From Amaricoccus sp. (GTDB taxonomy: Bacteria; Pseudomonadota; Alphaproteobacteria; Rhodobacterales; Rhodobacteraceae), in contig NZ_JAGOID010000048.1 of NCBI RefSeq assembly GCF_017995835.1, positions 1 to 23,783 on the forward strand: 23,783 nt of DNA, written 5' to 3'. The notes beneath the pieces are model-generated. The model saw only the letters and a list, made by a program, of their open reading frames with translations. It made no database searches and was not told the origin of the DNA. Position numbers and translations under genes: made by a program. Position 1 is the stretch's first letter, and each line of letters starts with the position of its first letter. Positions 6,784-23,486 of the stretch are shown piece after piece.

Positions 6784-8436
6784 TCAGGCGACCACCGGCC
6801 GGCGCCACATCGCGCGGGCGAAGCGGCCGGCGACGAAGGCCGAGTCGGTCAGGCTGGCGTTGCCGGACGGGTTGAGGCCGGTGACGTGGAAGTCGCTGAA
6901 GGCGGCCGACTGGTTGACGAAGATGTTGCCGGTGAGGTTGACCGAGAGGTTCGCGCCCGCCCGGGCGAAGGCGTCGGCGGCGCGGAGGATCCGCGCCTCG
7001 TCGGTGTCGTAGAGGGCGGCGGTGATCGCCCCCTTGTGCATCGCGAGCGCCGCGGCGCGAGCGATGCCGTCGTCGGCGTCGGCGACGGCGATCACGAAGG
7101 CGATCGGGCCGAAGCGCTCCTCGCCGTAGGCAGCCTCGTCGGCGGCGTCGACCGCGACGATCAGCGGCGTTGCGCTGCGGCCCCCGGCGAGAGGGGCGCT
7201 GTCGCGGACGACGCGGCCGAGGCTGCGCGCGTCGGCGACGCGGTCGATGGTCGCCGGATTCGCGATGGCGCCGGCGACGCCGGCGGCGCGGTCCGGATCG
7301 GCGAGCAGCTGATCCACGGCGTCGGCGATGCCGGCCGCGACCTCGTCGAAGGACTTTCGGCCCTCGTCGGTGTCGATGCCGTCCCACGGGACGAAGATGT
7401 CCTGCGGGGCAGTGCACATCTGGCCGGAGTAGAGCGAGAGCGAGAAGGCGACGTTGGCGCACATCGCGGCGAAGGCGTCGACGCCGGCGATGACGATCGA
7501 GTTCACGCCGGCCTCCTCGGTGTAGACGAGGGCTTCTCCGGCGTTCTCGCGCACCCAGGCGCCGAAGGCGTTGGAGCCGGTGTAGTCGACGATCCGTATC
7601 GCCGGGTGTCGCACGAGGTCCTTGGTGACCGGCGCCTCGGCCGAATCGGCGGCGAGAAGGACGACGTCGCGCGGGAAGCCCTCCTCGGCGAGGAGGTCGC
7701 GGAGCACGGCGACGGTCAGGGCGAGGGGCAGGGTGGCGCCGGGGTGCGGCTTCACGATGACGCTGTTACCGGTCGCGAGGCTGGCGAAGATGCCGGGATA
7801 GCTGTTCCAGGTCGGGAAGGTCTGGCAGCCGATGGCGAGGGCGACGCCGCGCGGGACGATGCGCCAGTGCTTCTCGATGACGATGGGGTCGGCCTTGCCC
7901 TGCGGTTTCTCCCAGACGGCTCGGGCCGGCGCGCGGGACATCTCGAGCCAGGCGGTGGCGACGGCCTCGAGGCCGCGGTCCTGCGCGTGAGGGCCGCCGG
8001 CCTGGAAGGCCATCGGGAAGGCTTGGCCGGTCGTGTGCATCACCGCGTTGCCCATCTCGAAGCTCATCGCGTTCAGCCGCTTCAGCGCCTCGAGGAGGAG
8101 GCCGACTCGGGTGTCCGGCGCCGCGGCGGCCCAGGCGGAACTGGCGGATTCGGAGGCGGCGACGAGGGTGGCAGCATCGGCGGAGGGATAGGTGATCCCG
8201 AGTGCGGGGCCGTAGGGCGAGACTTCGGCGCCGACGCGGGTCGATTCGGGGTGGCCGGGGAGGGCAAATGCCGCGCCGAGCCGCGCTTGGTAAGCCGTCT
8301 GCCCGTCCTCGCGGGCGGTCTCGCCATAGAATTTCCCGCTCGGAACCTCCGGGAAAGGCGACCAGAATCCCCGGTCACCCAGCGCTGCGACGGCTTGTTC
8401 GAGAAGCGTGCGATGCCGGTGGAAGAGCGAGGCCAT
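6784..8436 (-). CDS. paaN: PaaN2-type (PacL-like) aldehyde dehydrogenase of phenylacetate degradation
   Basis: 550 aa from the ATG at 8436 (RBS GGGAGA 7 nt upstream). The ORF-track start at 8655 runs through the AT-rich promoter region. Aldehyde dehydrogenase superfamily with catalytic Glu (YTEEAGVNS) and Cys (SGQMCTAPQ). The N-terminus LFHRHRTLLEQAVAALGDRGFWSPFPE resembles the stand-alone PaaN2 family as I remember it. Confidence 0.8.
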   Translation of the reverse strand: MASLFHRHRTLLEQAVAALGDRGFWSPFPEVPSGKFYGETAREDGQTAYQARLGAAFALPGHPESTRVGAEVSPYGPALGITYPSADAATLVAASESASSAWAAAAPDTRVGLLLEALKRLNAMSFEMGNAVMHTTGQAFPMAFQAGGPHAQDRGLEAVATAWLEMSRAPARAVWEKPQGKADPIVIEKHWRIVPRGVALAIGCQTFPTWNSYPGIFASLATGNSVIVKPHPGATLPLALTVAVLRDLLAEEGFPRDVVLLAADSAEAPVTKDLVRHPAIRIVDYTGSNAFGAWVRENAGEALVYTEEAGVNSIVIAGVDAFAAMCANVAFSLSLYSGQMCTAPQDIFVPWDGIDTDEGRKSFDEVAAGIADAVDQLLADPDRAAGVAGAIANPATIDRVADARSLGRVVRDSAPLAGGRSATPLIVAVDAADEAAYGEERFGPIAFVIAVADADDGIARAAALAMHKGAITAALYDTDEARILRAADAFARAGANLSVNLTGNIFVNQSAAFSDFHVTGLNPSGNASLTDSAFVAGRFARAMWRRPVVA

Positions 8437-8541
8437 CTGCGTTTCTCCCGATGTTGTTGCGTTTATAATTGACTGACCAGTCGGTTTATGCAACACTTTT
8501 TTTAACGGCTGCAGCGAGCGGTCGCCTTGGGAGGGAAGCCG
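8437..8541. promoter_or_regulatory. Divergent control region between paaN2 and paaG
   Basis: This is the most AT-rich stretch of the window. It contains a perfect TATAAT (8464-8469, + strand), TTGACT (8469-8474), a T7 run (8497-8503) and the palindromic motif at 8468-8489. Transcription start sites are not determinable from sequence. Confidence 0.55.
8468..8489 (+). promoter_or_regulatory. Candidate PaaR (TetR-type) operator, copy 1
   Basis: ATTGACTGACCAGTCGGTTTAT has a GACTG-AC-CAGTC inverted-repeat core. By hand alignment, 17 of 22 positions are identical to the reverse complement of 23518-23539 upstream of paaJ. Confidence 0.5.
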
Positions 8542-9348
8542 ATGACCGAGACTGCGGCCTTGTCTGAGACGGTGCTCGTCTCGCTCGACGCGGGGGTGCT
8601 GAGCCTCACCCTGAACCGCCCGGACAAGCTTAACTCCTTCAACGAGGAAATGCACCGGTCGCTGCGCGCCGGCATGGAGCGCGCCGCCTCCGACCCGGAA
8701 GTCCGGGCGATCCTGCTGACCGGCGCCGGCCGCGGCTTCTCCGCCGGCCAGGACCTTGGCGACCGCGACCCGCGCAAGGGCGGCGGGGCGCCGGACCTCG
8801 GGGCGACGATCGAGACCTTCTACAACCCGACCTTGCGGCTGATCCGCTCCATCGAAAAGCCGGTCGTCTGCGCCGTGAACGGCGTCGCCGCCGGCGCAGG
8901 CGCCAACATCGCGTTCGCCTGTGACATCGTGTTGGCGGCGAAGTCGGCCAAGTTCCTCCAGGCCTTCGCGAAGATCGGCCTCGTCCCCGACGCCGGGGGC
9001 AGTTGGTCGCTCGCCCGCATCCTCGGCGAGCCCCGCGCCAAGGCGCTGGCGCTCCTCGCCGAGCCGCTGCCGGCCGAGACCGCCGCCGACTGGGGCCTGA
9101 TCTGGAAGGCTGTCGACGACGCCGCGCTCCTCATCGAGGCCGAGTCGATCGCGAAGCGCCTCGCCGCCGGCCCGACCCGCGGCCTCGGCCTGACCAAGCG
9201 CGCGATCCAGGCGGCGGCGACCAACAGCCTCGACGCCCAGCTCGACCTCGAGCGCGACCTGCAGCGCGAGGCCGGCCGCACCGCCGACTACGCCGAGGGC
9301 GTCATCGCCTTCCTCGACAAGCGCCAGCCGGAGTTCTCGGGCAGATGA
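8542..9348 (+). CDS. paaG: 1,2-epoxyphenylacetyl-CoA isomerase (crotonase family)
   Basis: Near-colinear similarity to E. coli PaaG (LTLNRPDKLNSFNEEMH, LLTGAGRGFSAGQDLGDR, VCAVNGVAAGAGANIA, LDAQLDLERDLQREAGRTADYAEGV). ATG at 8542 follows GGAGGG, and I preferred it to the TTG at 8527. Confidence 0.9.
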   Translation: MTETAALSETVLVSLDAGVLSLTLNRPDKLNSFNEEMHRSLRAGMERAASDPEVRAILLTGAGRGFSAGQDLGDRDPRKGGGAPDLGATIETFYNPTLRLIRSIEKPVVCAVNGVAAGAGANIAFACDIVLAAKSAKFLQAFAKIGLVPDAGGSWSLARILGEPRAKALALLAEPLPAETAADWGLIWKAVDDAALLIEAESIAKRLAAGPTRGLGLTKRAIQAAATNSLDAQLDLERDLQREAGRTADYAEGVIAFLDKRQPEFSGR

Positions 9349-11936: not shown

Positions 11937-12548
11937 TCAGTCGCCGAGCTTCAGGCGCTCGGCAATCAGCGGGTCGTAGTCCGGGGCACGAACCTGGCGA
12001 CGCCCTGGCTCGGGGACGGCGAGCGGCTCGGCCGGCGCGAGCTTGCCGGGTGCCTCGGCAGCGAGGCGCTGATACACGCCGGTGCCGCGGGTCTTCCACT
12101 CGATCTCCTGACGGGTGAGCTCGCGGACGACCTTGGCCGGAGAGCCGACGGCAAGGCTGCGAGGCGGGATCTTGCGGCCGGCCGGGACGAAGGCCATGGC
12201 CCCGACGATTGAATCCTCGCCGACCTCGGCCTCATCCATGATGACGGCGTTCATCCCGACCATGGCGTTTCGCCCGATGCGGCAGCCGTGCAGGACAGCG
12301 CCGTGGCCGATGTGGCCGCAGGGCTCGACGACGACGCCGAGGTTCGGGAAGGTGTGGACGACGCAGGTCTCCTGCACGTTGGCGCCATGGCCGATCTCGA
12401 TGCGGCCGAAGTCGCCGCGCAGTACGCACTGTGGCCCGATGTAGACGCCGGCGGCGATGATGACGTCGCCAATGACCGTAGCGTCGGGATGGACGAAGGC
12501 CTCGGGATCGACGACCGGAATGATGCCGTCCCATGACCAGATGCTCAT
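11937..12548 (-). CDS. paaY: PaaY, hexapeptide-repeat (gamma-carbonic-anhydrase-like) protein with thioesterase role in the paa pathway
   Basis: Colinear with E. coli PaaY (VVDPEAFVHPDATVIGDVII, LRGDFGRIEIGHGANVQE, GHIGHGAVLHGCRIGRNAMVGMNAVIMD, VGSPAKVVRELT). The start forms an ATGA overlap with the upstream thioesterase stop. Confidence 0.9.
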   Translation of the reverse strand: MSIWSWDGIIPVVDPEAFVHPDATVIGDVIIAAGVYIGPQCVLRGDFGRIEIGHGANVQETCVVHTFPNLGVVVEPCGHIGHGAVLHGCRIGRNAMVGMNAVIMDEAEVGEDSIVGAMAFVPAGRKIPPRSLAVGSPAKVVRELTRQEIEWKTRGTGVYQRLAAEAPGKLAPAEPLAVPEPGRRQVRAPDYDPLIAERLKLGD

Positions 12549-13024
12549 TGCCCGCCCTCCGTTGCGCGTTCCATTTCAGTGGTGATCTCCCGGCGCAGCC
12601 GGCGGCGGAGTTCGGCGGCGCGGTTGCGCCGGGCCTCGGCCGAGGTCTCGATGCGAAGCTCCGGCACCTCGGCGGGGCGGCTCGAGTCGTCGATGGCGAC
12701 CATAGTGAAGTAGCAGGAGTTAGTGTGGCGGACGGTGCCGGTGCGGATGTTCTCGGCCTCGACCCGGATGCCGACCTCCATCGACGTGCGGCCGGCGTGA
12801 TTGACCGCGGCGCGGAAGGTAACGAGCTCGCCGACGTTGATCGGTTCTTTGAAGGTCACCTGGTCAACCGAGAGGGTGACGGCGTAGCGGCCTGAGTAGC
12901 GCGAGGCTAGCGAGAAGGCGACTCGGTCGAGGAGGTTGAGGAGCGCGCCGCCATGGACCTTGCCGGAAAAGTTGGCCATGTCGGGGGTCATCAGGACAGT
13001 CATCTCCAGGCGGCGGTGATCCAT
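12545..13024 (-). CDS. Acyl-CoA thioesterase, hotdog fold (YciA/acyl-CoA hydrolase type)
   Basis: LMTPDMANFSGKVHGGALLNLLDRVAF and SCYFTMVAID are typical of the acyl-CoA hydrolase family. I preferred the ATG at 13024, with strong RBS GGAGAAGGAAG, over the GTG at 13066. Confidence 0.85.
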   Translation of the reverse strand: MDHRRLEMTVLMTPDMANFSGKVHGGALLNLLDRVAFSLASRYSGRYAVTLSVDQVTFKEPINVGELVTFRAAVNHAGRTSMEVGIRVEAENIRTGTVRHTNSCYFTMVAIDDSSRPAEVPELRIETSAEARRNRAAELRRRLRREITTEMERATEGGQ

Positions 13025-13077
13025 CTTCCTTCTCCGTGACAGGCAAGGGACAGGAGCGTCCGCCACTCGGGCGTCGG

Positions 13078-13101
13078 CCGCCGGGCGCGGACGCCCGGCG
13101 G
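13078..13101 (-). terminator. Perfect 10-bp GC stem-loop immediately downstream of the acylase gene
   Basis: CCGCCGGGCG-cgga-CGCCCGGCGG lies 5 nt after the pac stop (13107). No U-tract follows, so it may be an attenuator or mRNA-stabilising hairpin rather than a full terminator. Confidence 0.35.
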
Positions 13102-13106
13102 AAGCA

Positions 13107-15479
13107 TCATTCGATGGTAAAGGCCATTCGCCCCACCGCGGATTTCTCGACGTCGTCGCGGTAGAAGGCCTGCGGGCGGCAGCCGAAGTCGGCGTAGAGC
13201 TGCAACTGGTCCTGATAGTGCGGCGACTTCGTGCCGTCGGGGGCGATGAAGCCGCTCTGGCCCGGGGGCGTGACGGCGCAGAAAGTCACCTTGCCGTCGC
13301 GGAAGCGGACCATGTTGTTCTCGGTGCCGCGGTTCATGGCGGTGCCGACGGCGAGCCCTTCGTCCGCGGTGGTCTGCGGGATGCCGAGGTAGTTCTTCGT
13401 GTCGAAGACGTGCTGGTCGATCGGTGCGAGCCAGGCCGTGACGTTGTCGCTGCCGTACTGTTCGGACAGGGCCACGCGGGCCTTATCGAGCGCCGTCAGG
13501 ACCACCGTGTCGGGATCTTCGCCATTGAAGAAGTCGTAGGCCTGCGGGACGCCTGCGTCCTTGCCGAGAAGCGCGTTGTTCAGGAGAGCCGAGGGCAGCG
13601 CGATCCGGATTTGCATGACCTTCGACGGGATCGACGGCGCATCGTCGAGGAGCACGTCGGCGACCATGACGTCCATCCAGGTGCGCAGGATCGCGACCGC
13701 CGGTGAGGTCGCCTTGCCGTCGGCGTCGCGGATCTGGCGGCTGTCCCAGTCGGCGAGCGCCGCGAGCATGGGCTGGCGCGGGTCATCCGCCGGTAGGCCC
13801 GCGCTCGCGGCGAGGATGCGCGGCACGAAATAGCGTGCGTTGACGTCGACGAAACTCGTCTCGGGCAGGATGTTCCAGACCTCCTCGGGGGAGAAGCGGT
13901 CCTTGGCTTCGATGCGCGACATGATCTCCACGACGCGGTCGGCCGAGCCCCATGGGCTGCCCTCGACGGTGGAGACGGTGCCCTTGCCTGAGCGGTTGTT
14001 CCAGTTGGCGATCCAGCCCTGCTCAGGGTTCAGTGTCTTGGGGACGTCGTCGAAGGGGCGGATTCCCTGCCAGTCCATGCTGCCGTCGCCCTTGGCCGGC
14101 AGGCGAAGATCTTGGCTGGCCTGCCGCACCGGCAGGTAGCCGGGCGAGACGTAGCCGATGTTGCCGTCCTTGTCGGCGTAGTACCAGTTGATCGTGGTCG
14201 CGACGTCCTTCGCCGCGTCGAGCCACTGGTCGTAGTCCTGTGCCTGCGTCGAGCGGATCCAGGCCATGAGCGTGGAAATCTCGTAGCCCTCCCAGGTGCG
14301 GTGGAAGGCGAAGGCGCGATCATGCTCGGCGTCGAAGACAGGGACCACGCCATAGTCGGTCCCCCAGATCTCGGCGGTCACATCCTCGGCGCCCTTGACC
14401 TTGATCGTCTCCTCGCGGCGGCGCATGTCGGTCCAGCCGTCGCCGCGGCGATACTGGTGTGGATTCTGCGGGTTGAGCTCGAGCGCGACGTAGTCGTTGA
14501 CGTCGAGAGGGCCGGCGGTGGCGCCCCAGGCGATCGCGCCGTTGGTTCCGAACAGGACGTTTGGCACGGCGAAGGGGGTGTTGCCGGTGAGGTCGAACCC
14601 GGCGCCGTGCAGGCCGATCGAGAACACGTAAGCCGGGTTGAAGTTACCGAACTGCGGGCCGTTGACGAGGATGGTGCTGCCGTCGACGGTCTTTTCCGGC
14701 CCGAGGATCCAGATGTTGCTGGCACGCGGGCGGTCGTCCTCGCCGCTCTCCATGCCGGGGACGTCGGCGAGGCCGGCGAAGCGGGTGGCGCCGAGCGGCG
14801 CGGCCTCGGCCTTCTTCTGGTATGGCGCGCCGGCGGGAACGGTGGTGGGGGCGAGCGGGTCCTCGATCCAGTAGATCTGGTCGAAGAGCTGCTTGCCGAC
14901 GGTCTCGCCGTGCTGCTCGACAAGGGCGTCGAGCACTTTGGCGTTGTTGAGTTCGTTGGAGAAGTAGGAGAAGCGGCCGGCCATCGTGCCGACGTAGATC
15001 ATCGCGACGTCGAAGTCGGACCAGTCCGCGGGCTCGAAGCCAAAGTCGGTGAACTCCTTCGGCAAGAGGTTTGCCTTGTCCGCCATCACCTCGGAGAGGC
15101 GCTTATTGAAGCCGGCCGCGTAGCCTTGGAGGATTGCGCGCTGCTCGGGGGGCAACGCGTCGATCTGGGTGCGGATCTTCGCCTGGTCGAAATTGGTGCG
15201 GGTCTGGGTGTCGTAGGCGACCTGGTCGGGGCCGAGCACCTCGGCGGTGGTGCCGAGGACCGAGCGGCGGGCCATCTCCATCTGGAAGAGGCGGTCCTCG
15301 GCGACTGCGTAGCCGAAGCCGGCGTAGAGGCCGTAGACATCGTTGGCATAGACCTGCGGGATGCCCCACTCGTCGCGCAGGATCGTCACGTCGGAGGCGG
15401 CACTGGCGGCGATGGGGGAGAGGGCGAGCAGGGCAGGCAGGAGCAGCCGGCCGAGGGACCGGGTCATCGTGGCGGGCAT
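13107..15479 (-). CDS. pac: Penicillin G acylase (penicillin amidase, Ntn-hydrolase, peptidase S45) precursor
   Basis: Colinear with E. coli PGA. Shared segments include ILRDEWGIPQVYAND, GYAVAEDRLFQMEMARRS, FDVAMIYVGTMAGRF and the beta-subunit N-terminal nucleophile SNIWILG (Ser254, codon 14718-14720). Further shared segments are VNGPQFGNFNPAY, GLHGAGFDLTGNTPFA, TINWYYADKDGNIGY, WIANWNN, RGTENNM, PPGQSGFIAPDG and HYQDQL. The N-terminal signal peptide is MPATMTRSLGRLLLPALLALSPIAASA. RBS AGGAGGAG precedes the ATG at 15479. Confidence 0.95.
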   Translation of the reverse strand: MPATMTRSLGRLLLPALLALSPIAASAASDVTILRDEWGIPQVYANDVYGLYAGFGYAVAEDRLFQMEMARRSVLGTTAEVLGPDQVAYDTQTRTNFDQAKIRTQIDALPPEQRAILQGYAAGFNKRLSEVMADKANLLPKEFTDFGFEPADWSDFDVAMIYVGTMAGRFSYFSNELNNAKVLDALVEQHGETVGKQLFDQIYWIEDPLAPTTVPAGAPYQKKAEAAPLGATRFAGLADVPGMESGEDDRPRASNIWILGPEKTVDGSTILVNGPQFGNFNPAYVFSIGLHGAGFDLTGNTPFAVPNVLFGTNGAIAWGATAGPLDVNDYVALELNPQNPHQYRRGDGWTDMRRREETIKVKGAEDVTAEIWGTDYGVVPVFDAEHDRAFAFHRTWEGYEISTLMAWIRSTQAQDYDQWLDAAKDVATTINWYYADKDGNIGYVSPGYLPVRQASQDLRLPAKGDGSMDWQGIRPFDDVPKTLNPEQGWIANWNNRSGKGTVSTVEGSPWGSADRVVEIMSRIEAKDRFSPEEVWNILPETSFVDVNARYFVPRILAASAGLPADDPRQPMLAALADWDSRQIRDADGKATSPAVAILRTWMDVMVADVLLDDAPSIPSKVMQIRIALPSALLNNALLGKDAGVPQAYDFFNGEDPDTVVLTALDKARVALSEQYGSDNVTAWLAPIDQHVFDTKNYLGIPQTTADEGLAVGTAMNRGTENNMVRFRDGKVTFCAVTPPGQSGFIAPDGTKSPHYQDQLQLYADFGCRPQAFYRDDVEKSAVGRMAFTIE

Positions 15480-15512: not shown

Positions 15513-17582
15513 TCAGGCCGCGGGCGACCAAGTCTTCGCCACCATGGTCAGCACGTCGTACTGGGCGACGAGCGCGCCGTCCTGCTTGGTCACCTGGCAG
15601 CCCCAGCGGACCTCGCCGTGCTCGGCACCGGCGCGCGGGTTGATCTCCTTGCAGGTCAGGCGCACGCCGAGGGTGTCGCCCGGGTAGACTGGCGTGAGGA
15701 AGCGGAGGTTGTCGACGCCGTAGTTGGCGAGGACCGGGCCCGGATCCGGATCGACGAAGAGGCCGGCGGCGAAGGAGACGATGAGGTAGCCGTGGGCGAC
15801 GCGGCCGTCGAAGAACGGGTTCGCCTTGGCCGCCGCCTCGTCCATGTGGGCGTAGAAGGTGTCGCCGGTGAACTCCGCAAAATGCTCGATGTCCTCCAGC
15901 GTCACCGTGCGGGTGGCGGTGACGAGCTGGTCGCCGACCCTCAGCTCCGCCAGCGACTTGCGGAACGGGTGGGTGCCGTCCGCCCGGGTGTCGGCGCCCT
16001 CGATCCAGCGGCCGGTGACCGCCGAGAGCAGGCGGGGGGCACCCTGGACCGCGGTGCGCTGCATATAGTGATTGACGCCGCGGATGCCGCCCAGCTCCTC
16101 GCCGCCGCCGGCGCGGCCGGGGCCGCCGTGGACGAGCACCGGCAGCGGCGAGCCATGGCCGGTGGAGGTCTTGGCGCTCAGGCGGTTGCCGATCAGCACC
16201 CGGCCGTGGAAGGGGGCGAGGCCGAGGACGACCTCCTCCGCGACGCCCTTGTCGTCGGTGAACACCGAGGCGACGAGCGAGCCCTTGCCGAGCCTGGCGA
16301 GCGCGATGGCCTCGCCGACATCGTCGTAGGGCATCACCGTCGAGACCGGGCCGAAGGCCTCGACGTCATGGATGGCGGTCTTGGCCAGCGGGTTGTCGGC
16401 GTAGAGGACGACCGGGTTGAGGAAGGCGCCCTTCTCGGCGTCGCCCGAAGCGATCCGCACCTCGTCGGGGTTGCCGGCGACGATCTCGGCCTCGGCGCGC
16501 AGCTCGCGGATGCGGTCGCGGACCTCGCGGCGCTGGTCGAGGCTGGCGAGCGCGCCCATGCGCGTCGCCTCGTTCGACGGATCGCCGAGAACGGTCTTGG
16601 CGAGGCGGTCGCCGAGCGCGGCGACGAGCGCGTCGGTGAAGGCCCGCGGCGCGATCACCCGGCGGATGGCGGTGCACTTCTGCCCCGCCTTCACCGTCAT
16701 CTCGCGGGCGACCTCCTTGACGAAAAGGTCGAACTCCGGCGTGCCCGGGCCGGCGTCGGGCCCGAGGATCGCGGCGTTGAGGCTGTCGGCCTCCATGGTG
16801 AAGCGGGTGGAGTTCTCGACGATCGCCGCGCCGCTGCGCAGCTTGCGCCCCGTCCAGGCCGAGCCGGTGAAGGTGACGACGTCCTGCCCCGTCACATGGT
16901 CGAGCAGGTCGCCGGTCGAGCCGGCGATGAGCTGGATCGCCCCTTCGGGCAGGATGCCCGACTCGACGATGCGGCGGACCACGAGCTCGGTCAGGTAGGC
17001 GGTCTGGCTCGCCGGCTTCACGATCGAGGGCACGCCGGCGATGAAGGTCGGCGCCACCTTCTCCAGCATCCCCCACACCGGGAAGTTGAATGCGTTGATG
17101 TGGATCGCGACGCCGGTCAGCGGCGTCAGGACGTGCTGGGCCGAGAAGCTCGCGTCCTTCGACAGCAGCTCCACCTCGCCGTCGGTGAGGACGCGGGTGT
17201 TCGGCAGCTCGCGGCGCGCCTTCGAGGCGTAGGAGAGCACGGTGCCGGCGCCGCCCTCGATGTCGATCCAACCGTCGGCGCGGGTGGCGCCGGTGGCGAA
17301 GTTCTCGGCGTAGAACTCCTCCTTGTTGGCCATCAGGAACTGGCCAAGCGCCTTCAGCATTGCGGCGCGGTCGTGGAAGGAGAGCGCGCGCAGCTTCGGC
17401 CCGACCACGTCGCGCCCCCAGGTGAGGGCCCCGGCGAAGTCGACGCCGGAGCTGTCGATGCGGGCGACGGGGGCGCCGGTGGCGGCGTCGAGCAGGGTCT
17501 GGCCCGGGCCGTTGCCCTTGACCCATTCGCCGCCCACGTAGCTTTCGAGGGTACGGGGCTTGGTGGTGACGTCGACGGTCAT
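15513..17582 (-). CDS. paaZ: Bifunctional oxepin-CoA hydrolase / 3-oxo-5,6-dehydrosuberyl-CoA semialdehyde dehydrogenase
   Basis: N-terminal aldehyde dehydrogenase with catalytic Glu (MEADSLNAA) and Cys (GQKCTAIRR). C-terminal MaoC hotdog domain (TGDTFYAHMD...VAHGYL...NLRFLTPVYPGDTL), colinear with E. coli PaaZ. Confidence 0.95.
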   Translation of the reverse strand: MTVDVTTKPRTLESYVGGEWVKGNGPGQTLLDAATGAPVARIDSSGVDFAGALTWGRDVVGPKLRALSFHDRAAMLKALGQFLMANKEEFYAENFATGATRADGWIDIEGGAGTVLSYASKARRELPNTRVLTDGEVELLSKDASFSAQHVLTPLTGVAIHINAFNFPVWGMLEKVAPTFIAGVPSIVKPASQTAYLTELVVRRIVESGILPEGAIQLIAGSTGDLLDHVTGQDVVTFTGSAWTGRKLRSGAAIVENSTRFTMEADSLNAAILGPDAGPGTPEFDLFVKEVAREMTVKAGQKCTAIRRVIAPRAFTDALVAALGDRLAKTVLGDPSNEATRMGALASLDQRREVRDRIRELRAEAEIVAGNPDEVRIASGDAEKGAFLNPVVLYADNPLAKTAIHDVEAFGPVSTVMPYDDVGEAIALARLGKGSLVASVFTDDKGVAEEVVLGLAPFHGRVLIGNRLSAKTSTGHGSPLPVLVHGGPGRAGGGEELGGIRGVNHYMQRTAVQGAPRLLSAVTGRWIEGADTRADGTHPFRKSLAELRVGDQLVTATRTVTLEDIEHFAEFTGDTFYAHMDEAAAKANPFFDGRVAHGYLIVSFAAGLFVDPDPGPVLANYGVDNLRFLTPVYPGDTLGVRLTCKEINPRAGAEHGEVRWGCQVTKQDGALVAQYDVLTMVAKTWSPAA

Positions 17583-17592
17583 GGTCCTGTCC

Positions 17593-18369
17593 TCAGGCGA
17601 GGCCGAGCGGCGCCAGCGTCGCGCGGACCGAAGCGGTCCAGTCGGCGAGCAGCGCCTCGTTCGGGCGGTGGCGGAGGCCGAAGCGCTTCTGCGTCTCGAA
17701 CCGGGCGGAGTTCATCGTGCCGAAGCTGTCGGCGACCTTCGGCTGCCAGTAGGCGATGGCGGCCTTGGCGGCGGCGCGCCCCTCCTCGGTCGCGGTGATG
17801 TCGGTGAGGCCGGTGACGCCGAGGTCGGTGTGGCGTTTCTCGCGCGGGGCGATGGCGCGGAACACGTCGGCGAGCGGGGCGTAGGAAACCCTCGCGAGCT
17901 CCTCCAGCGTCACCGCCGCGGCGAGCCCCTGCAGGACGTTCAGCACCACGGCGTCGACCCAGCCCTCGATCGGATAGTGGAACACCGCGAGGCGCATGTC
18001 GGCGCCATGGCGGGCCTGGCCGAGTGCCGCGTCGCGCGGCAGGCGGTCGGCCCAGGGATGCTGGGTCGCGTAGCGGCCCTCGTCGGCGCCGAAGTCGCCC
18101 ATCAGGTCGAGGACACGGCCGGCGTGGTCGGCCTTCTCCAGCGTGATCCGGCAGGCGGCGATGCGCGCGGTGATGCCCGCCGCGTCGTTGATGGTGTCGG
18201 CGAAGCCGGCCGAGGCGGCGAGCTCGCTGTCGACGAAGCTCGCCATCAGCCGCAAGAGCTCGCCGCGGTAGCGGGCGGGCACGTTGGCCGGGGAGGTAAG
18301 CTGGCCGCCTTGGGCGAGGTAGTCCTCGATCGGCATGGTCGCGGCGGTGGCGTCGGTGTCTTCGGTCAT
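17593..18369 (-). CDS. Additional PaaA/PaaC-family (ferritin-like, phenylacetic acid catabolic) protein, function unknown
   Basis: 258 aa from the ATG at 18369 (RBS GAGGGAGGG). The ORF-track start at 18867 runs in another frame through paaE. The protein has ungapped similarity to this window's PaaA across the ligand helices: YRGELLRLMASFVDSELAA, LEKADHAGRVLDL, FHYPIEGWVDAVVLNVLQG and SYAPLADVFRAIAPREKRH. Confidence 0.75.
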   Translation of the reverse strand: MTEDTDATAATMPIEDYLAQGGQLTSPANVPARYRGELLRLMASFVDSELAASAGFADTINDAAGITARIAACRITLEKADHAGRVLDLMGDFGADEGRYATQHPWADRLPRDAALGQARHGADMRLAVFHYPIEGWVDAVVLNVLQGLAAAVTLEELARVSYAPLADVFRAIAPREKRHTDLGVTGLTDITATEEGRAAAKAAIAYWQPKVADSFGTMNSARFETQKRFGLRHRPNEALLADWTASVRATLAPLGLA

Positions 18370-18380
18370 GGTTCCCTCCC

Positions 18381-19454
18381 TCACTGGTCGTAGCTGACGA
18401 CGACCTTGTCGCTCAGCGGGAAGCACTGGCAGGTGAGCACGTAACCCTGCTTCACCTCGTAGTCCTCGAGCGCGTGGTTGATGGCCATCTCGGTCTCGCC
18501 CTCCAGCACCCTGGCGCGGCAGGTCGAGCACACCCCGGCCTTGCAGGCGTAGGGCGCGTCGATGTTCGCCTCCAGCGCCGCGTCGAGCAGGCTCTGGCCC
18601 GCCTTCGGCATGCGGAAGCTCCGCGTCGCGCCGTCGAGCGTCACCGTCGCCTCGGTGGAGTTGGAGGTCGAGACCTCGGCCGAGACCACCCGCTGCTTGG
18701 TCCGCCCCGGCTGGCCCGAGGCGAAGAGCTCGAACTTGATCTGCGCGTCGGCGAGCCCGTGCTCCTTCAGCGCCCCGGCGATCGCCAGCATCATCGGCTC
18801 GGGGCCGCAGATGAAGGCGGTGTTGACCGTCGGCAGGTCGATCCAGGTGCGGAACAGCGCCGCGCACTTCTCCGCGTCCACCCGCCCGGTGAAGAGCTCG
18901 ATGTCCTGCGCCTCCGTTTCGAGGACGTGGACGATCGACAGCCGTCCGAGGTAGCGGTTCTTCAGGTCCTCGAGGTCCTCGCGGAACATGATCGAGCTGA
19001 TCTGCCGGTTGGCGTAGACGAGGGTGAAGGTCGAGCCCGGCTCGGCGGCGAGCACCGTCTTGATGATCGAGAGCAGCGGCGTGATCCCCGACCCGCCGGC
19101 GAAGCCGAGGTAGTTCTTCGGCGCGTCCGGCTCGATCGGCGTGAAGAACCGCCCCATCGGCGGCATCGCCTCGAGCACCGCCCCCGCCTTCAGCTCCTCG
19201 TTGGCCCAGGTCGAGAAGGCGCCGCCGTCGACGCGCTTGATGCCGACCTGCAGGTGACCCTCGCCCTTGCCGGCGCAGATCGAGTAGCTGCGGCGCAGCT
19301 CGTCGTCCTCGAACTTGCGGCGAAAGGTCAGGTACTGGCCTTGGGTGAAGTCGAAGAGCGCGGCGTCCTCGTCGCGCGGCTTCAGGGTGACGACGACGGC
19401 GTCCCGCGTCTCCTTGCGGACGTCGACGACATCGAGGGAATGGAAGCGTGCCAT
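18381..19454 (-). CDS. paaE: Phenylacetyl-CoA epoxidase reductase subunit (FNR-like with C-terminal plant-type 2Fe-2S)
   Basis: FAD-binding RSYSIC, NAD-binding GFAGGSGITPL, and the C-terminal cluster motif CKAGVCSTC...C. Colinear with E. coli PaaE. Confidence 0.95.
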   Translation of the reverse strand: MARFHSLDVVDVRKETRDAVVVTLKPRDEDAALFDFTQGQYLTFRRKFEDDELRRSYSICAGKGEGHLQVGIKRVDGGAFSTWANEELKAGAVLEAMPPMGRFFTPIEPDAPKNYLGFAGGSGITPLLSIIKTVLAAEPGSTFTLVYANRQISSIMFREDLEDLKNRYLGRLSIVHVLETEAQDIELFTGRVDAEKCAALFRTWIDLPTVNTAFICGPEPMMLAIAGALKEHGLADAQIKFELFASGQPGRTKQRVVSAEVSTSNSTEATVTLDGATRSFRMPKAGQSLLDAALEANIDAPYACKAGVCSTCRARVLEGETEMAINHALEDYEVKQGYVLTCQCFPLSDKVVVSYDQ

Positions 19455-20008: not shown

Positions 20009-20860
20009 CTACCAGGAGGCGCCGGGATAGGCGCGCTGCAGGAACTGCATCTCGGCGAGGATATAGCCGAGGTGCTCGGTGTGGACGCCGCGCTTGCCGC
20101 CCTTGTGGGCGAAGCCCGACTCCGGGATTGCCAGGGTCGCCTCGGTCAGCACGTCGCGAACGGTCGCGTCCCAAGCGGCCTCGAGGTCGCGCGGGTTCGG
20201 CGCGATCCCGGCCGCTGCGACCGCGACGTCCTTCTCGTCGGCGAGGAACATCTCGCCGGTATAGGCCCAGAGCGCGTCGAGCGCGTCCTGCATCCGCCGG
20301 CGGCTCTCCCCGGTCCCGTCCCCGAGCCGGATCACCAGGTCCGACGACCGCTCGAGGTGGTAGGCGACCTCCTTCGCGGCCTTTGCCGCGATCTCGGCGA
20401 CGCGCGGATCGGACGACCCTTGGAGCGCCTTCAGCAGCTCGAAGTGCCAGGCGTCGAACAGGAACTGCCGCATCAGCGTGTGGCCGAAGTCGCCGTTCGG
20501 GCGCTCCACCAGCAAGAGGTTGCGGAAGTCCCAGGCGTCGCGCAGGTAGGCGAGATCGTCGGCCGACCGGCCCTTGCCCTCGACCTCGCCGGCGAGGCCG
20601 AGCCACATCTGGGTCTGGCCGATCAGGTCGAGCGCGACGTTGGCAAGCGCGATGTCCTCCTCCAGCGCCGGCGAGTGGCCGCACCATTCGGAGACCCGGT
20701 GGCCGAGGATCAGCGTCGCGTCGCCGAGGCGGAGCAGCACCTCGAAGAAGGCGTCCTGCCCCGCATCCGGGGTCGGGATCTCGGTCGCGTGGCTGTGGGC
20801 CGCCGCTTCGCGCGCGAGCTCCGCCACGTCGGGGGTGTTCATGTCCGGGAGCGAGGGCAT
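20009..20860 (-). CDS. paaC: Phenylacetyl-CoA epoxidase structural subunit PaaC
   Basis: LLRLGDATLILGHRVSEWCGHSPALEEDIALANVALDLIGQ and the C-terminal GKRGVHTEHLGYILAEMQFLQRAYPG match E. coli PaaC. It lacks ExxH ligands, as expected for PaaC. ATG at 20860 lies 1 nt after the paaB stop. The alternative ATG at 20842 is possible. Confidence 0.9.
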   Translation of the reverse strand: MPSLPDMNTPDVAELAREAAAHSHATEIPTPDAGQDAFFEVLLRLGDATLILGHRVSEWCGHSPALEEDIALANVALDLIGQTQMWLGLAGEVEGKGRSADDLAYLRDAWDFRNLLLVERPNGDFGHTLMRQFLFDAWHFELLKALQGSSDPRVAEIAAKAAKEVAYHLERSSDLVIRLGDGTGESRRRMQDALDALWAYTGEMFLADEKDVAVAAAGIAPNPRDLEAAWDATVRDVLTEATLAIPESGFAHKGGKRGVHTEHLGYILAEMQFLQRAYPGASW

Positions 20861-21273: not shown

Positions 21274-22266
21274 TCACTCGGCGGCGACAGGCGCCCGGCG
21301 TGCGGCGGCCTTCTCGGCGTGGGCGACGAGCCCGTCGCGGAACCAGGCGCCGTCGTCCCAGGCCTTCACCCGGGCGCCGAGCCGGTCCTTGTTGCACGGG
21401 CCGTTGCCGGCGATGACGTCGAAGAACTCCGACCAGTCGGGCTCGGAGAAGTCGTGGCCGCCCTTCTCCTCGTTCCACTTCAGCTCGGGATCGGGGACGG
21501 TCAGCCCCAGGTACTTGGCCTGCGGCACGGTCTGGTCGACGAACTTCTGGCGGAGCTCGTCGTTGGTGTTCATCTTGATCTTCCACGCCATCGACTGGGC
21601 GGAATGCACCGAGTCCTTGTCCGACGGCCCGAACATCATCAGCGACGGATACCACAGCCGGTTCAGCGCATCCTGCGCCATGCGCTTCTGCTCGGGCGTG
21701 CCTGCGGCCATCTTCATCATGATGGCGTAGCCTTGGCGCTGGTGGAACGATTCCTCCTTGCAGATGCGGATCATCGCCCGGCTGTACGGCCCGAACGAGG
21801 TCCGCTGCAGCGGCACCTGGTTCATGATCGCCGCCCCGTCGACCAGCCAGCCGACCGCGCCCATGTCGGCCCAGGTCAGCGTCGGATAGTTGAAGATCGA
21901 CGAGTACTTCATCTTGCCCTTGTGGAGTAGTTCCATCAGCTCGTCGCGGCTCACCCCGAGCGTCTCGGCGGCGCAGTAGAGATAGAGGCCGTGCCCCGCC
22001 TCGTCCTGCACCTTGGCGAGCAGGATCGCCTTGCGCTCCAGCGTCGGGGCACGGGAGATCCAGTTGCCCTCGGGCAGCTGGCCGACGATCTCGGAGTGGG
22101 CGTGCTGGCCGATCTGGCGGATCAGCGTCTTGCGATAGCCCTCGGGCATCCACTCCTTGGGCTCGATCTTCTCGTTCCGGTCGATGCGCTCCTGGAAGGC
22201 GCGCTCCGCGGGCGTCATGTCCTCCGGCTTCTTCAGACCCTCGGTCGAGACGAGCTGGGCGTACAT
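21274..22266 (-). CDS. paaA: Phenylacetyl-CoA 1,2-epoxidase catalytic subunit PaaA
   Basis: 330 aa from the ATG at 22266 (RBS GAGGAGGAAG), 14 nt after the paaJ stop. [43 protein letters not shown] and [11 protein letters not shown] match E. coli PaaA, with all di-iron ligand motifs present. Confidence 0.95.
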
Positions 22267-22280
22267 TCTTTGCTTCCTCC

Positions 22281-23486
<1,206 letters not shown>

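Follow-up and report, generated by a model that had tools for sequence, protein, structure and literature searches.

The stretch of DNA analysed here (the window) comprises positions 1 to 23,783 (23,783 nucleotides, nt) of contig NZ_JAGOID010000048.1 of Amaricoccus sp. (assembly GCF_017995835.1), which carries a gene cluster for phenylacetate degradation (paa), and our subject is the gene lying between paaE and paaZ in this cluster, hereafter X, which encodes a 258-amino-acid (aa) ferritin-fold protein related to the epoxidase subunit PaaA. The biochemistry of the phenylacetate pathway is regarded as solved, with the epoxidase defined as PaaABC(D)E with no sixth component in reviews (PMC4498308), and X, for which we found no literature description, is an unexplained extra part. 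It belongs to a conserved, unnamed subfamily found across many Alpha- and Betaproteobacteria, including the tractable Paracoccus denitrificans, whose protein is WP_011751025.1. We tentatively propose, with a probability of about 0.4, that X adds a facultative sixth component to the phenylacetyl-coenzyme A (phenylacetyl-CoA) epoxidase module, one coupled to the electron donor and auxiliary at the epoxide step.

On the minus strand the genes run in the order thiolase, paaA, paaB, paaC, paaD, paaE, X, paaZ, as follows:

22281..23486, minus strand: 3-oxoadipyl-CoA thiolase gene (paaJ/pcaF), operon head; from its open reading frame (ORF), annotated pcaF in Paracoccus denitrificans
21274-22266, minus strand: paaA, canonical; NCBIfam equivalog PaaA, 520.5 bits
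20862-21236, minus strand: paaB, canonical; Pfam and NCBIfam matches
20009-20860, minus strand: paaC, canonical; NCBIfam equivalog PaaC, 294 bits
19476-20003, minus strand: paaD, canonical; Pfam and NCBIfam matches
18381..19454, minus strand: paaE reductase, directly upstream of X; Pfam FAD_binding_6, NAD_binding_1 and Fer2 (flavin adenine dinucleotide, nicotinamide adenine dinucleotide and 2Fe-2S domains)
18374..18380, minus strand: Shine-Dalgarno sequence GGGAGGG, 4 nt ahead of the X ATG and directly past the paaE stop; read from the sequence
17593..18369, minus strand: X, a 258-aa K-type (Lys at position 79, see below) PaaA-like ferritin-fold protein; coding sequence including the stop, from the ORF and its translation
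15513..17582, minus strand: paaZ, aldehyde dehydrogenase fused to a MaoC hydratase, directly downstream of X; Pfam

All five canonical genes from paaA to paaE were present and intact by their Pfam and NCBIfam matches, the paaE stop codon (18381-18383) lies 11 nt upstream of the X start (ATG at 18369), and the paaZ ATG (17582) follows the X stop codon after 10 nt, in agreement with an earlier sequence-only reading of this DNA, which had described X as packed between paaE and paaZ, with PaaA and PaaC both present and intact. The canonical pathway is complete in the window, and X is an extra. It shares its strand with paaABCDE across short gaps, and no terminator-like or promoter-like sites were found between paaE, X and paaZ on the minus strand, an arrangement indicative of co-transcription; the G+C content at third codon positions (GC3) of X was 0.95, that of the neighbouring genes 0.94-0.97. 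A longer ORF at 17593-18867 (424 aa, GTG start) overlaps paaE in another frame and was rejected as the X gene: homologues are 250-260 aa long, so the start is the ATG at 18369.

Profile searches placed X in the family Pfam PF05138 (PaaA_PaaC) at 50.8 bits (E 1.7e-13, residues 28-257), above the gathering threshold of 28.5 bits. It scored 35.3 bits against NCBIfam TIGR02156 (PaaA), below the cut-off of 280 bits and against 520.5 bits for the PaaA of the window, and gave no match to TIGR02158 (PaaC, cut-off 133 bits) at E up to 1. In hhalign comparisons the probability was 96.9% with the PaaA profile and 1.2% (score 21) with PaaC. The sequence-only reading, which had called X a third PF05138 member and a copy of neither PaaA nor PaaC, is borne out on both counts by the family score, the failure of both equivalog models and the low hhalign score with PaaC, and a recent duplication of the PaaA or PaaC of the operon was ruled out by these profile comparisons. 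An AlphaFold2 model of X built with 46 homologues (predicted local distance difference test, pLDDT, 94.8; predicted template modelling score, pTM, 0.91) is a PaaA-like helical bundle, and Foldseek searches of the Protein Data Bank (PDB) with it returned PaaA (3pwq/3pvr) as the best match (E 2e-9, template modelling (TM) score 0.8), with PaaC at E 1e-6 and TM 0.7 and Sulfolobus SSO1313 (4MUD) at TM 0.72.

Since the iron ligands of E. coli PaaA are E42, E72, H75, D126, E155 and H158 (PMC4498308), we aligned X with E. coli PaaA and with the PaaA of the window, free of gaps across the ligand segments, and followed each position through 81 genome orthologues and through 80 loci from a metagenome scan with divergent K-type members, which include a paaE-linked and a sister clade (see below):

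18223..18225, minus strand: E49 codon (PaaA E42), retained; Glu in 79/81 genome orthologues and 80/80 metagenome loci
18133..18135, minus strand: K79 codon, replacing the Glu of the first ExxH (PaaA E72); Lys in 81/81 and 80/80 K-type sequences
18124..18126, minus strand: H82 codon (PaaA H75); invariant in the 81 genome orthologues
17971..17982, minus strand: F130-H-Y132-P133 (PaaA F108-N-Y-P); from the alignment, F130 and Y132 invariant
17926..17928, minus strand: G148 codon (PaaA D126), with Q147 at -1; Gly in 80/80 metagenome loci, both clades
17830..17841, minus strand: E177-K-R-H180, second ExxH (PaaA E155 and H158), retained; from the alignment

X thus has E49, K79, H82, G148, E177 and H180 at the six ligand positions, keeping four of the six and lacking the full set expected of a catalytic PaaA. 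The residues called by the sequence-only reading (E49, H82, E177 and H180 kept, Lys and Gln/Gly substituted) were correct, with two amendments. E78, taken there for a first-motif Glu displaced by one residue (EKADH), aligns with PaaA D71, the acidic position before ExxH. This position is not a ligand, and PaaC and the intact relatives likewise have an acidic residue there, with Gln in a few. Secondly, the conserved core of the site consists of E49, K79, G148, E177 and H180, whereas H82 is not universal in the subfamily: 9 of 30 paaE-type loci from metagenomes have Asn there, and distant members have N, I, C or M. The 81 orthologues all share E78, K79, D81, H82, N144, E177 and H180; across both metagenomic clades E49, K79, G148 and E177 were invariant and H180 was present in 79/80, E177 being invariant wherever examined. 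The remodelled site is therefore conserved, not drifting. On this residue pattern, the centre of X presumably cannot be a canonical di-iron site and would have room for one canonically bound metal ion at most.

Compared with PaaA (E. coli; PDB 3PVR, 3PW1, 3PWQ), its best structural match, X shares the Pfam family, four of the six ligand positions, the F-x-Y-P motif and the operon, and differs in overall sequence (~22% identity), in K79 for E72 and G148 for D126, in the lysine bridge of PaaA (K68, E49), which is I75 and F56 in X, and in the absence of the ~70-residue C-terminal stretch that bears the Leu286 "door". The retained motif includes the counterpart of PaaA F108, which orients the phenyl ring (PMC4498308). 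PaaC (PDB 1OTK, 3PVR chain B/C) resembles X in length, ferritin fold (TM ~0.7), incomplete ligands and operon; in contrast, its residues at the ligand positions are T/A/C, L, Q, D, V/A and H, several of them hydrophobic, so that four ligand positions are changed (T/A/C, L, Q, V/A) but the Asp is kept, and it carries V-E-Q-P where PaaA and X have F-x-Y-P.

A site of this kind could also belong to a subunit that catalyses nothing. X might be a metal-free structural or regulatory subunit, an adaptor or effector on PaaE or on the PaaABC core that tunes docking and electron flow, with Lys79 pairing with E49 and E177 in the vacated iron site in a PaaC-like or effector-like role; we regard this, the main rival reading, as possible but doubtful. 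The loss of two of six ligands, the first-motif ligand Glu among them, the variation of H82 across the subfamily, and R176, which replaces the acidic residue ahead of the second ExxH in PaaA, all agree with such a role, for which PaaC is a precedent as a non-catalytic ferritin-like partner (PMC4498308). However, the strictness of E49, K79, G148, E177, H180 and F-x-Y-P exceeds that of PaaC at the same positions.

A search of 1.8 billion cluster representatives returned only 298 clusters at E up to 1e-3, and the relatives formed two groups, a K-type clade with Lys at 79 without exception and more distant short PaaA-like proteins with intact ligands. The hhalign scores of X were 583 with distant K-type members, 311 with the intact short proteins, 76 with PaaA and 21 with PaaC, and because these profile scores favour the K-type and intact short proteins over PaaA and PaaC, X belongs to a separate, short PaaA-like K-type subfamily and is not a within-operon duplicate. 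Its closest relatives are in Amaricoccus species (88-93% identity). We recovered 80 species-level genome loci (L001-L080) from Amaricoccus, Paracoccus, Pararhodobacter, Shinella, Rhizobium, Ensifer, Mesorhizobium, Phyllobacterium and some metagenome-assembled genomes (MAGs) of Burkholderiaceae. The order paaABCDE-X held in 80/80, with paaZ after X in 75/80 and a thiolase gene upstream in 61/80; paaE adjoined X in 79/80, the remaining contig ending just upstream of X. Conserved as an orthologue in all 80 loci, X is not a local innovation.

X is a real gene under purifying selection. The ratio of nonsynonymous to synonymous substitution rates (dN/dS) was 0.09-0.18 against three Amaricoccus loci, like that of its neighbours, and 0.40 against a fourth; the protein diverges at about the rate of PaaC, and 72 positions were invariant in the orthologue alignment. 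A decaying duplicate or mis-called ORF without function, whose sole arguments are two missing ligands and weak scores against the curated PaaA and PaaC models, is practically refuted by these conservation data: the low dN/dS, the retention in 80 species-level genome loci in many genera and two synteny types, the invariant positions, the high-confidence fold and the GC3 of 0.95.

The distribution of X is facultative. In a plasmid collection PaaC matched 296 records and X-type genes (at least 60% identity) were present in 37, with a few more divergent ones in addition; X was found in 16/17 Paracoccus, 11/11 Rhizobium and 2/65 Sinorhizobium records, and in none of the listed Ralstonia, Pseudosulfitobacter and Dinoroseobacter plasmid records. 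On pSymB of Sinorhizobium meliloti paaABCDE is followed directly by paaZ, Dinoroseobacter shibae has pcaF-paaABCDE, and both, like E. coli, are without X. It is thus not needed wherever the epoxidase occurs and is accessory and dispensable, whereas PaaC is in every paa locus. PaaC was never lost where X occurs among the 80 genome loci, so X is no replacement for PaaC, which counts against a metal-free subunit of the PaaC kind. NCBI annotates X as "Phenylacetic acid catabolic protein", other sources as PaaA or PaaI.

About half of the 80 metagenome loci repeat the paaE-X arrangement. A sister clade, 43-51% identical to X, has a second one, in which the X-like gene lies head-to-head with a gene for a MioC-like flavodoxin and upstream of paaG or paaF; flavodoxin, (paaN) and paaY run in one direction and the X-like gene, (paaF), paaG ... 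thiolase and paaK in the other. Among the metagenome loci with at least 700 base pairs of upstream sequence (n = 67), 41 had a divergent flavodoxin gene, 26 a co-directional paaE and none any other neighbour, so that the flavodoxin was present in 41/41 such loci lacking the paaE link; no flavodoxin was found in the window or in genome loci L001-L080. Of the earlier placement of X between paaE and paaZ, the position itself holds, but the constant neighbour is the electron-donor gene (paaE or flavodoxin) and not paaZ. Consistently, the X gene of Ruegeria sp. AD91A lies behind paaE but has no paaZ after it. Apparent PaaE-X and X-PaaZ fusions (P0147, P0187, P0236) were discarded as assembly frameshifts, since they contain out-of-frame stretches and the genes of their source contig, L182, are fragmented throughout.

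Named hosts of the sister clade include Caenispirillum, Roseospira, Sulfuritalea and Rhodocyclaceae. A complete paaABCDE set lies a few kilobases (kb) from the flavodoxin-X pair of Caenispirillum. In Roseospira goensis (L183, 7515-14902) we observed a compact cluster, paaN-flavodoxin diverging from X-like-paaG-paaI-paaJ-paaK, with unrelated flanking genes; no paaABCDE, paaF or paaH was found within 10 kb of it, nor any paaABCDE within 10 kb of the X-like gene in a Sulfuritalea MAG or within 7 kb in the flavodoxin-type metagenome loci.

These loci bear on the reading that X and its electron donor (PaaE or the MioC-like flavodoxin) together form an active, self-sufficient oxygenase or epoxide deoxygenase with a non-di-iron centre around Lys79, which we consider unlikely. 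The centre might be mononuclear iron, a dimetal site bridged by carbamylated Lys79, or metal-free with a flavodoxin-derived oxidant as in class Ie R2 proteins; the substrates might be phenylacetyl-CoA, its epoxide or ring-substituted analogues; and such an enzyme might replace PaaABCDE in some genomes, for example those with Roseospira-type clusters. The conserved pocket motif, the invariant site, the constant adjacency of an electron-donor gene and the lack of paaABCDE genes within the distances just given agree with it, and a precedent exists in a ferritin-like protein whose metal site contains a Lys and which needs a flavodoxin-like partner (PMC11846895; PMC6176560). Both Caenispirillum and the window, however, have paaABCDE alongside X, so X is normally an addition, and X with flavodoxin as a general substitute for PaaABCDE is not supported. 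No Roseospira PaaC was among the best 120 PaaC matches, a search that cannot show absence. Moreover, split paa clusters occur, for example in Burkholderia, and we know of no carbamyl-lysine in the ferritin-like fold.

Several distant loci place K-type or related genes in other surroundings. In L082 (GCA_036703705.1, 3977-5836), outside any paa context, a PaaA-like gene with 5/6 ligands, a K-type paralogue and a 79-aa ferredoxin with two four-cysteine motifs stand in tandem, a trio that looks like a possible minimal two-subunit oxygenase system. L088 has a stand-alone distant K-type gene near an FNR-like reductase. On a plasmid of Bartonella sp. HY761 (L091, 7613-10993), a regulator with a PaaX C-terminal domain is followed by two tandem K-type paralogues, 50% mutually identical, one of which has Glu in place of the Asp ligand; the neighbourhood holds no further paa genes, and the flanking genes are annotated as hypothetical. 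The flavodoxin-type paa cluster L144 also encodes a near-intact alpha-like PF05138 protein (12481-13302, minus strand), 62% identical to the alpha-like protein of L082 and adjoined by an ORF (13448-14398, plus strand) that by eye resembles a PaaX-type regulator, which hints at a possible pairing of K-type with alpha-like proteins in some genomes.

We compared pairwise protein distances of seven genes across 55 loci, correcting each pair for the average of the remaining five genes. The partial correlation (r) was 0.526 for X-PaaE (permutation p ~5e-4) and 0.487 for PaaA-PaaC, a known dimer, so that the rate of X appears to track PaaE about as strongly as PaaA tracks PaaC; for the other pairs with X it was 0.30 (PaaD), 0.18 (PaaZ), 0.14 (PaaC) and -0.11 (PaaA). 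The X-PaaE co-variation is suggestive and not proof because linked genes share history. The sequence-only reading had put forward, as speculation, an alternative partner, an altered-metal oxygenase and a regulatory or protective subunit. Each of these is compatible with the data; the evidence favours a link of X to the reductase over one to PaaA or PaaC.

This pattern touches two of the alternatives differently. For the metal-free adaptor, co-variation of X with PaaE fits simple binding, and since binding of PaaE to the core is reported to be the weakest in the complex (PMC4498308), a need for an adaptor is plausible; the K-type gene of L082, directly beside a near-intact alpha-like paralogue as PaaC is near PaaA, fits as well. 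The absent or weak co-variation with PaaA and PaaC speaks against it. X could also be an iron-delivery or repair (maturation) factor for the labile PaaA di-iron site; its half-site would bind one Fe(II), PaaE or flavodoxin would maintain the reduced state, and X would pass the ion on to PaaA. We regard this as quite improbable. PaaA crystallises without iron (PMC4498308), the half-site could hold one ion, and X is linked to an electron donor and accessory rather than essential. Against such a factor, X and PaaA rates do not co-vary, PaaD is already presumed to be the maturation factor, and the retained substrate-orienting motif would be needless in an iron chaperone.

We therefore return to X as an auxiliary, donor-coupled component of the epoxidase module, a reading backed by the FxYP ring-orienting motif, kept in X and absent from PaaC, by Ruegeria sp. 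AD91A, where X stays with paaE even without paaZ, and by the ferredoxin gene beside the K-type gene of L082 and the FNR-like reductase near that of L088. X would dock to PaaE or take electrons from it, a dedicated MioC-like flavodoxin probably standing in for PaaE in the sister clade, and its PaaA-type pocket would accommodate phenylacetyl-CoA or the ring-1,2-epoxide derived from it. X may act through a remodelled centre composed of E49, K79, E177 and H180, with H82 in most members, in which Lys79 would take the place of the first-motif ligand Glu and Gly148 would vacate the Asp position. Most likely it would not carry out primary epoxidation but serve the epoxide step in an auxiliary reductive or protective way, for example re-reduction of the toxic epoxide or control of uncoupled electron flow.

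A number of observations weigh against this proposal. H82 can be replaced (by Asn in 9/30 marine loci of the paaE type), so that the case for a two-histidine metal site is weaker, and the E-K-E-H cluster could be a salt-bridge pair filling an empty site, as in a dead subunit. Adjacency to paaE could merely reflect the point of gene insertion, and the flavodoxin gene, being the first of the paaN/paaY transcription unit, might have its function there. Shared local history confounds the rate co-variation, and the paaE-paaZ pair, too, reached a partial r of 0.416. Finally, the Bartonella plasmids carry two K-type genes and a PaaX-like regulator with no electron-donor gene annotated nearby.

Among known systems outside the pathway, the short PaaA-like proteins (P0192, P0206, P0231 and others; Sulfolobus SSO1313, PDB 4MUD) resemble X in length (230-280 aa), and outside the K-type clade those of the P0192 type come closest to it by profile (hhalign 311 versus 76 for PaaA); some share an H-x-W...R...R...D-x-R loop with X. 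In contrast to X, these proteins have a complete or nearly complete set of six ligands (E/ExxH/D/ExxH) and occur outside paa clusters, stand-alone or beside radical-SAM and MaoC genes on Alteromonas plasmids. One such locus is on Alteromonas mediterranea pAMDE1 (L093, 5959-8314), where a short PaaA-like gene with intact ligands (product 22% identical to X) precedes radical-SAM and MaoC-dehydratase genes, with Tn3-family transposase genes alongside; several Alteromonas plasmids and one Enterobacter plasmid carry this module too. The class Ie ribonucleotide reductase R2 (QSK/VPK) has other residues, including one Lys, in place of conserved metal-binding glutamates, yet is functional and depends on the flavodoxin-like NrdI encoded alongside (PMC11846895; PMC6176560); it is an analogy to X and not a relative. 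R2-like oxidases gave weak Foldseek matches (E at least 5e-3, TM at most ~0.6). Class Ie R2 has lost three glutamates (Q/V, S/P, K), whereas X has lost two ligands (K, G), and class Ie R2 has a flavodoxin-like partner and a modified tyrosine, whereas X in the window sits with PaaE and no flavodoxin.

Were X catalytic, it would represent a new kind of active centre in the ferritin-like superfamily and could explain the handling of toxic ring epoxides in some bacteria; as an adaptor, it would bear on the poorly understood docking of PaaE. Either way, counts of "PaaA_PaaC" domains as pathway markers miscount in X-bearing lineages.

The remainder of the window holds paaK, paaR (a TetR regulator), paaY, thioesterase genes, a fused hydratase/dehydrogenase gene, an ABC transporter and a paaG-like enoyl-CoA hydratase/isomerase gene (8527-9348, plus strand); given this last gene, X as a substitute for the PaaG isomerase was rejected. 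The paaB ORF as listed is 124 aa long with the PaaB domain at residues 34-121, and its true start is probably an internal Met ~30 codons downstream. Both the fused PaaZ (15513-17582, minus strand) and a separate paaN-like aldehyde dehydrogenase (6784-8655, minus strand) are encoded in the window, and Paracoccus denitrificans carries the same pair. Just after paaZ, the paa cluster contains a penicillin-amidase family gene (13107-15479, minus strand; 790 aa, Pfam E 1e-135), which recurs in Amaricoccus loci L001, L002 and L005 and beside the paa cluster of Paracoccus denitrificans, and whose product could supply phenylacetate to the pathway by hydrolysing phenylacetylated compounds.

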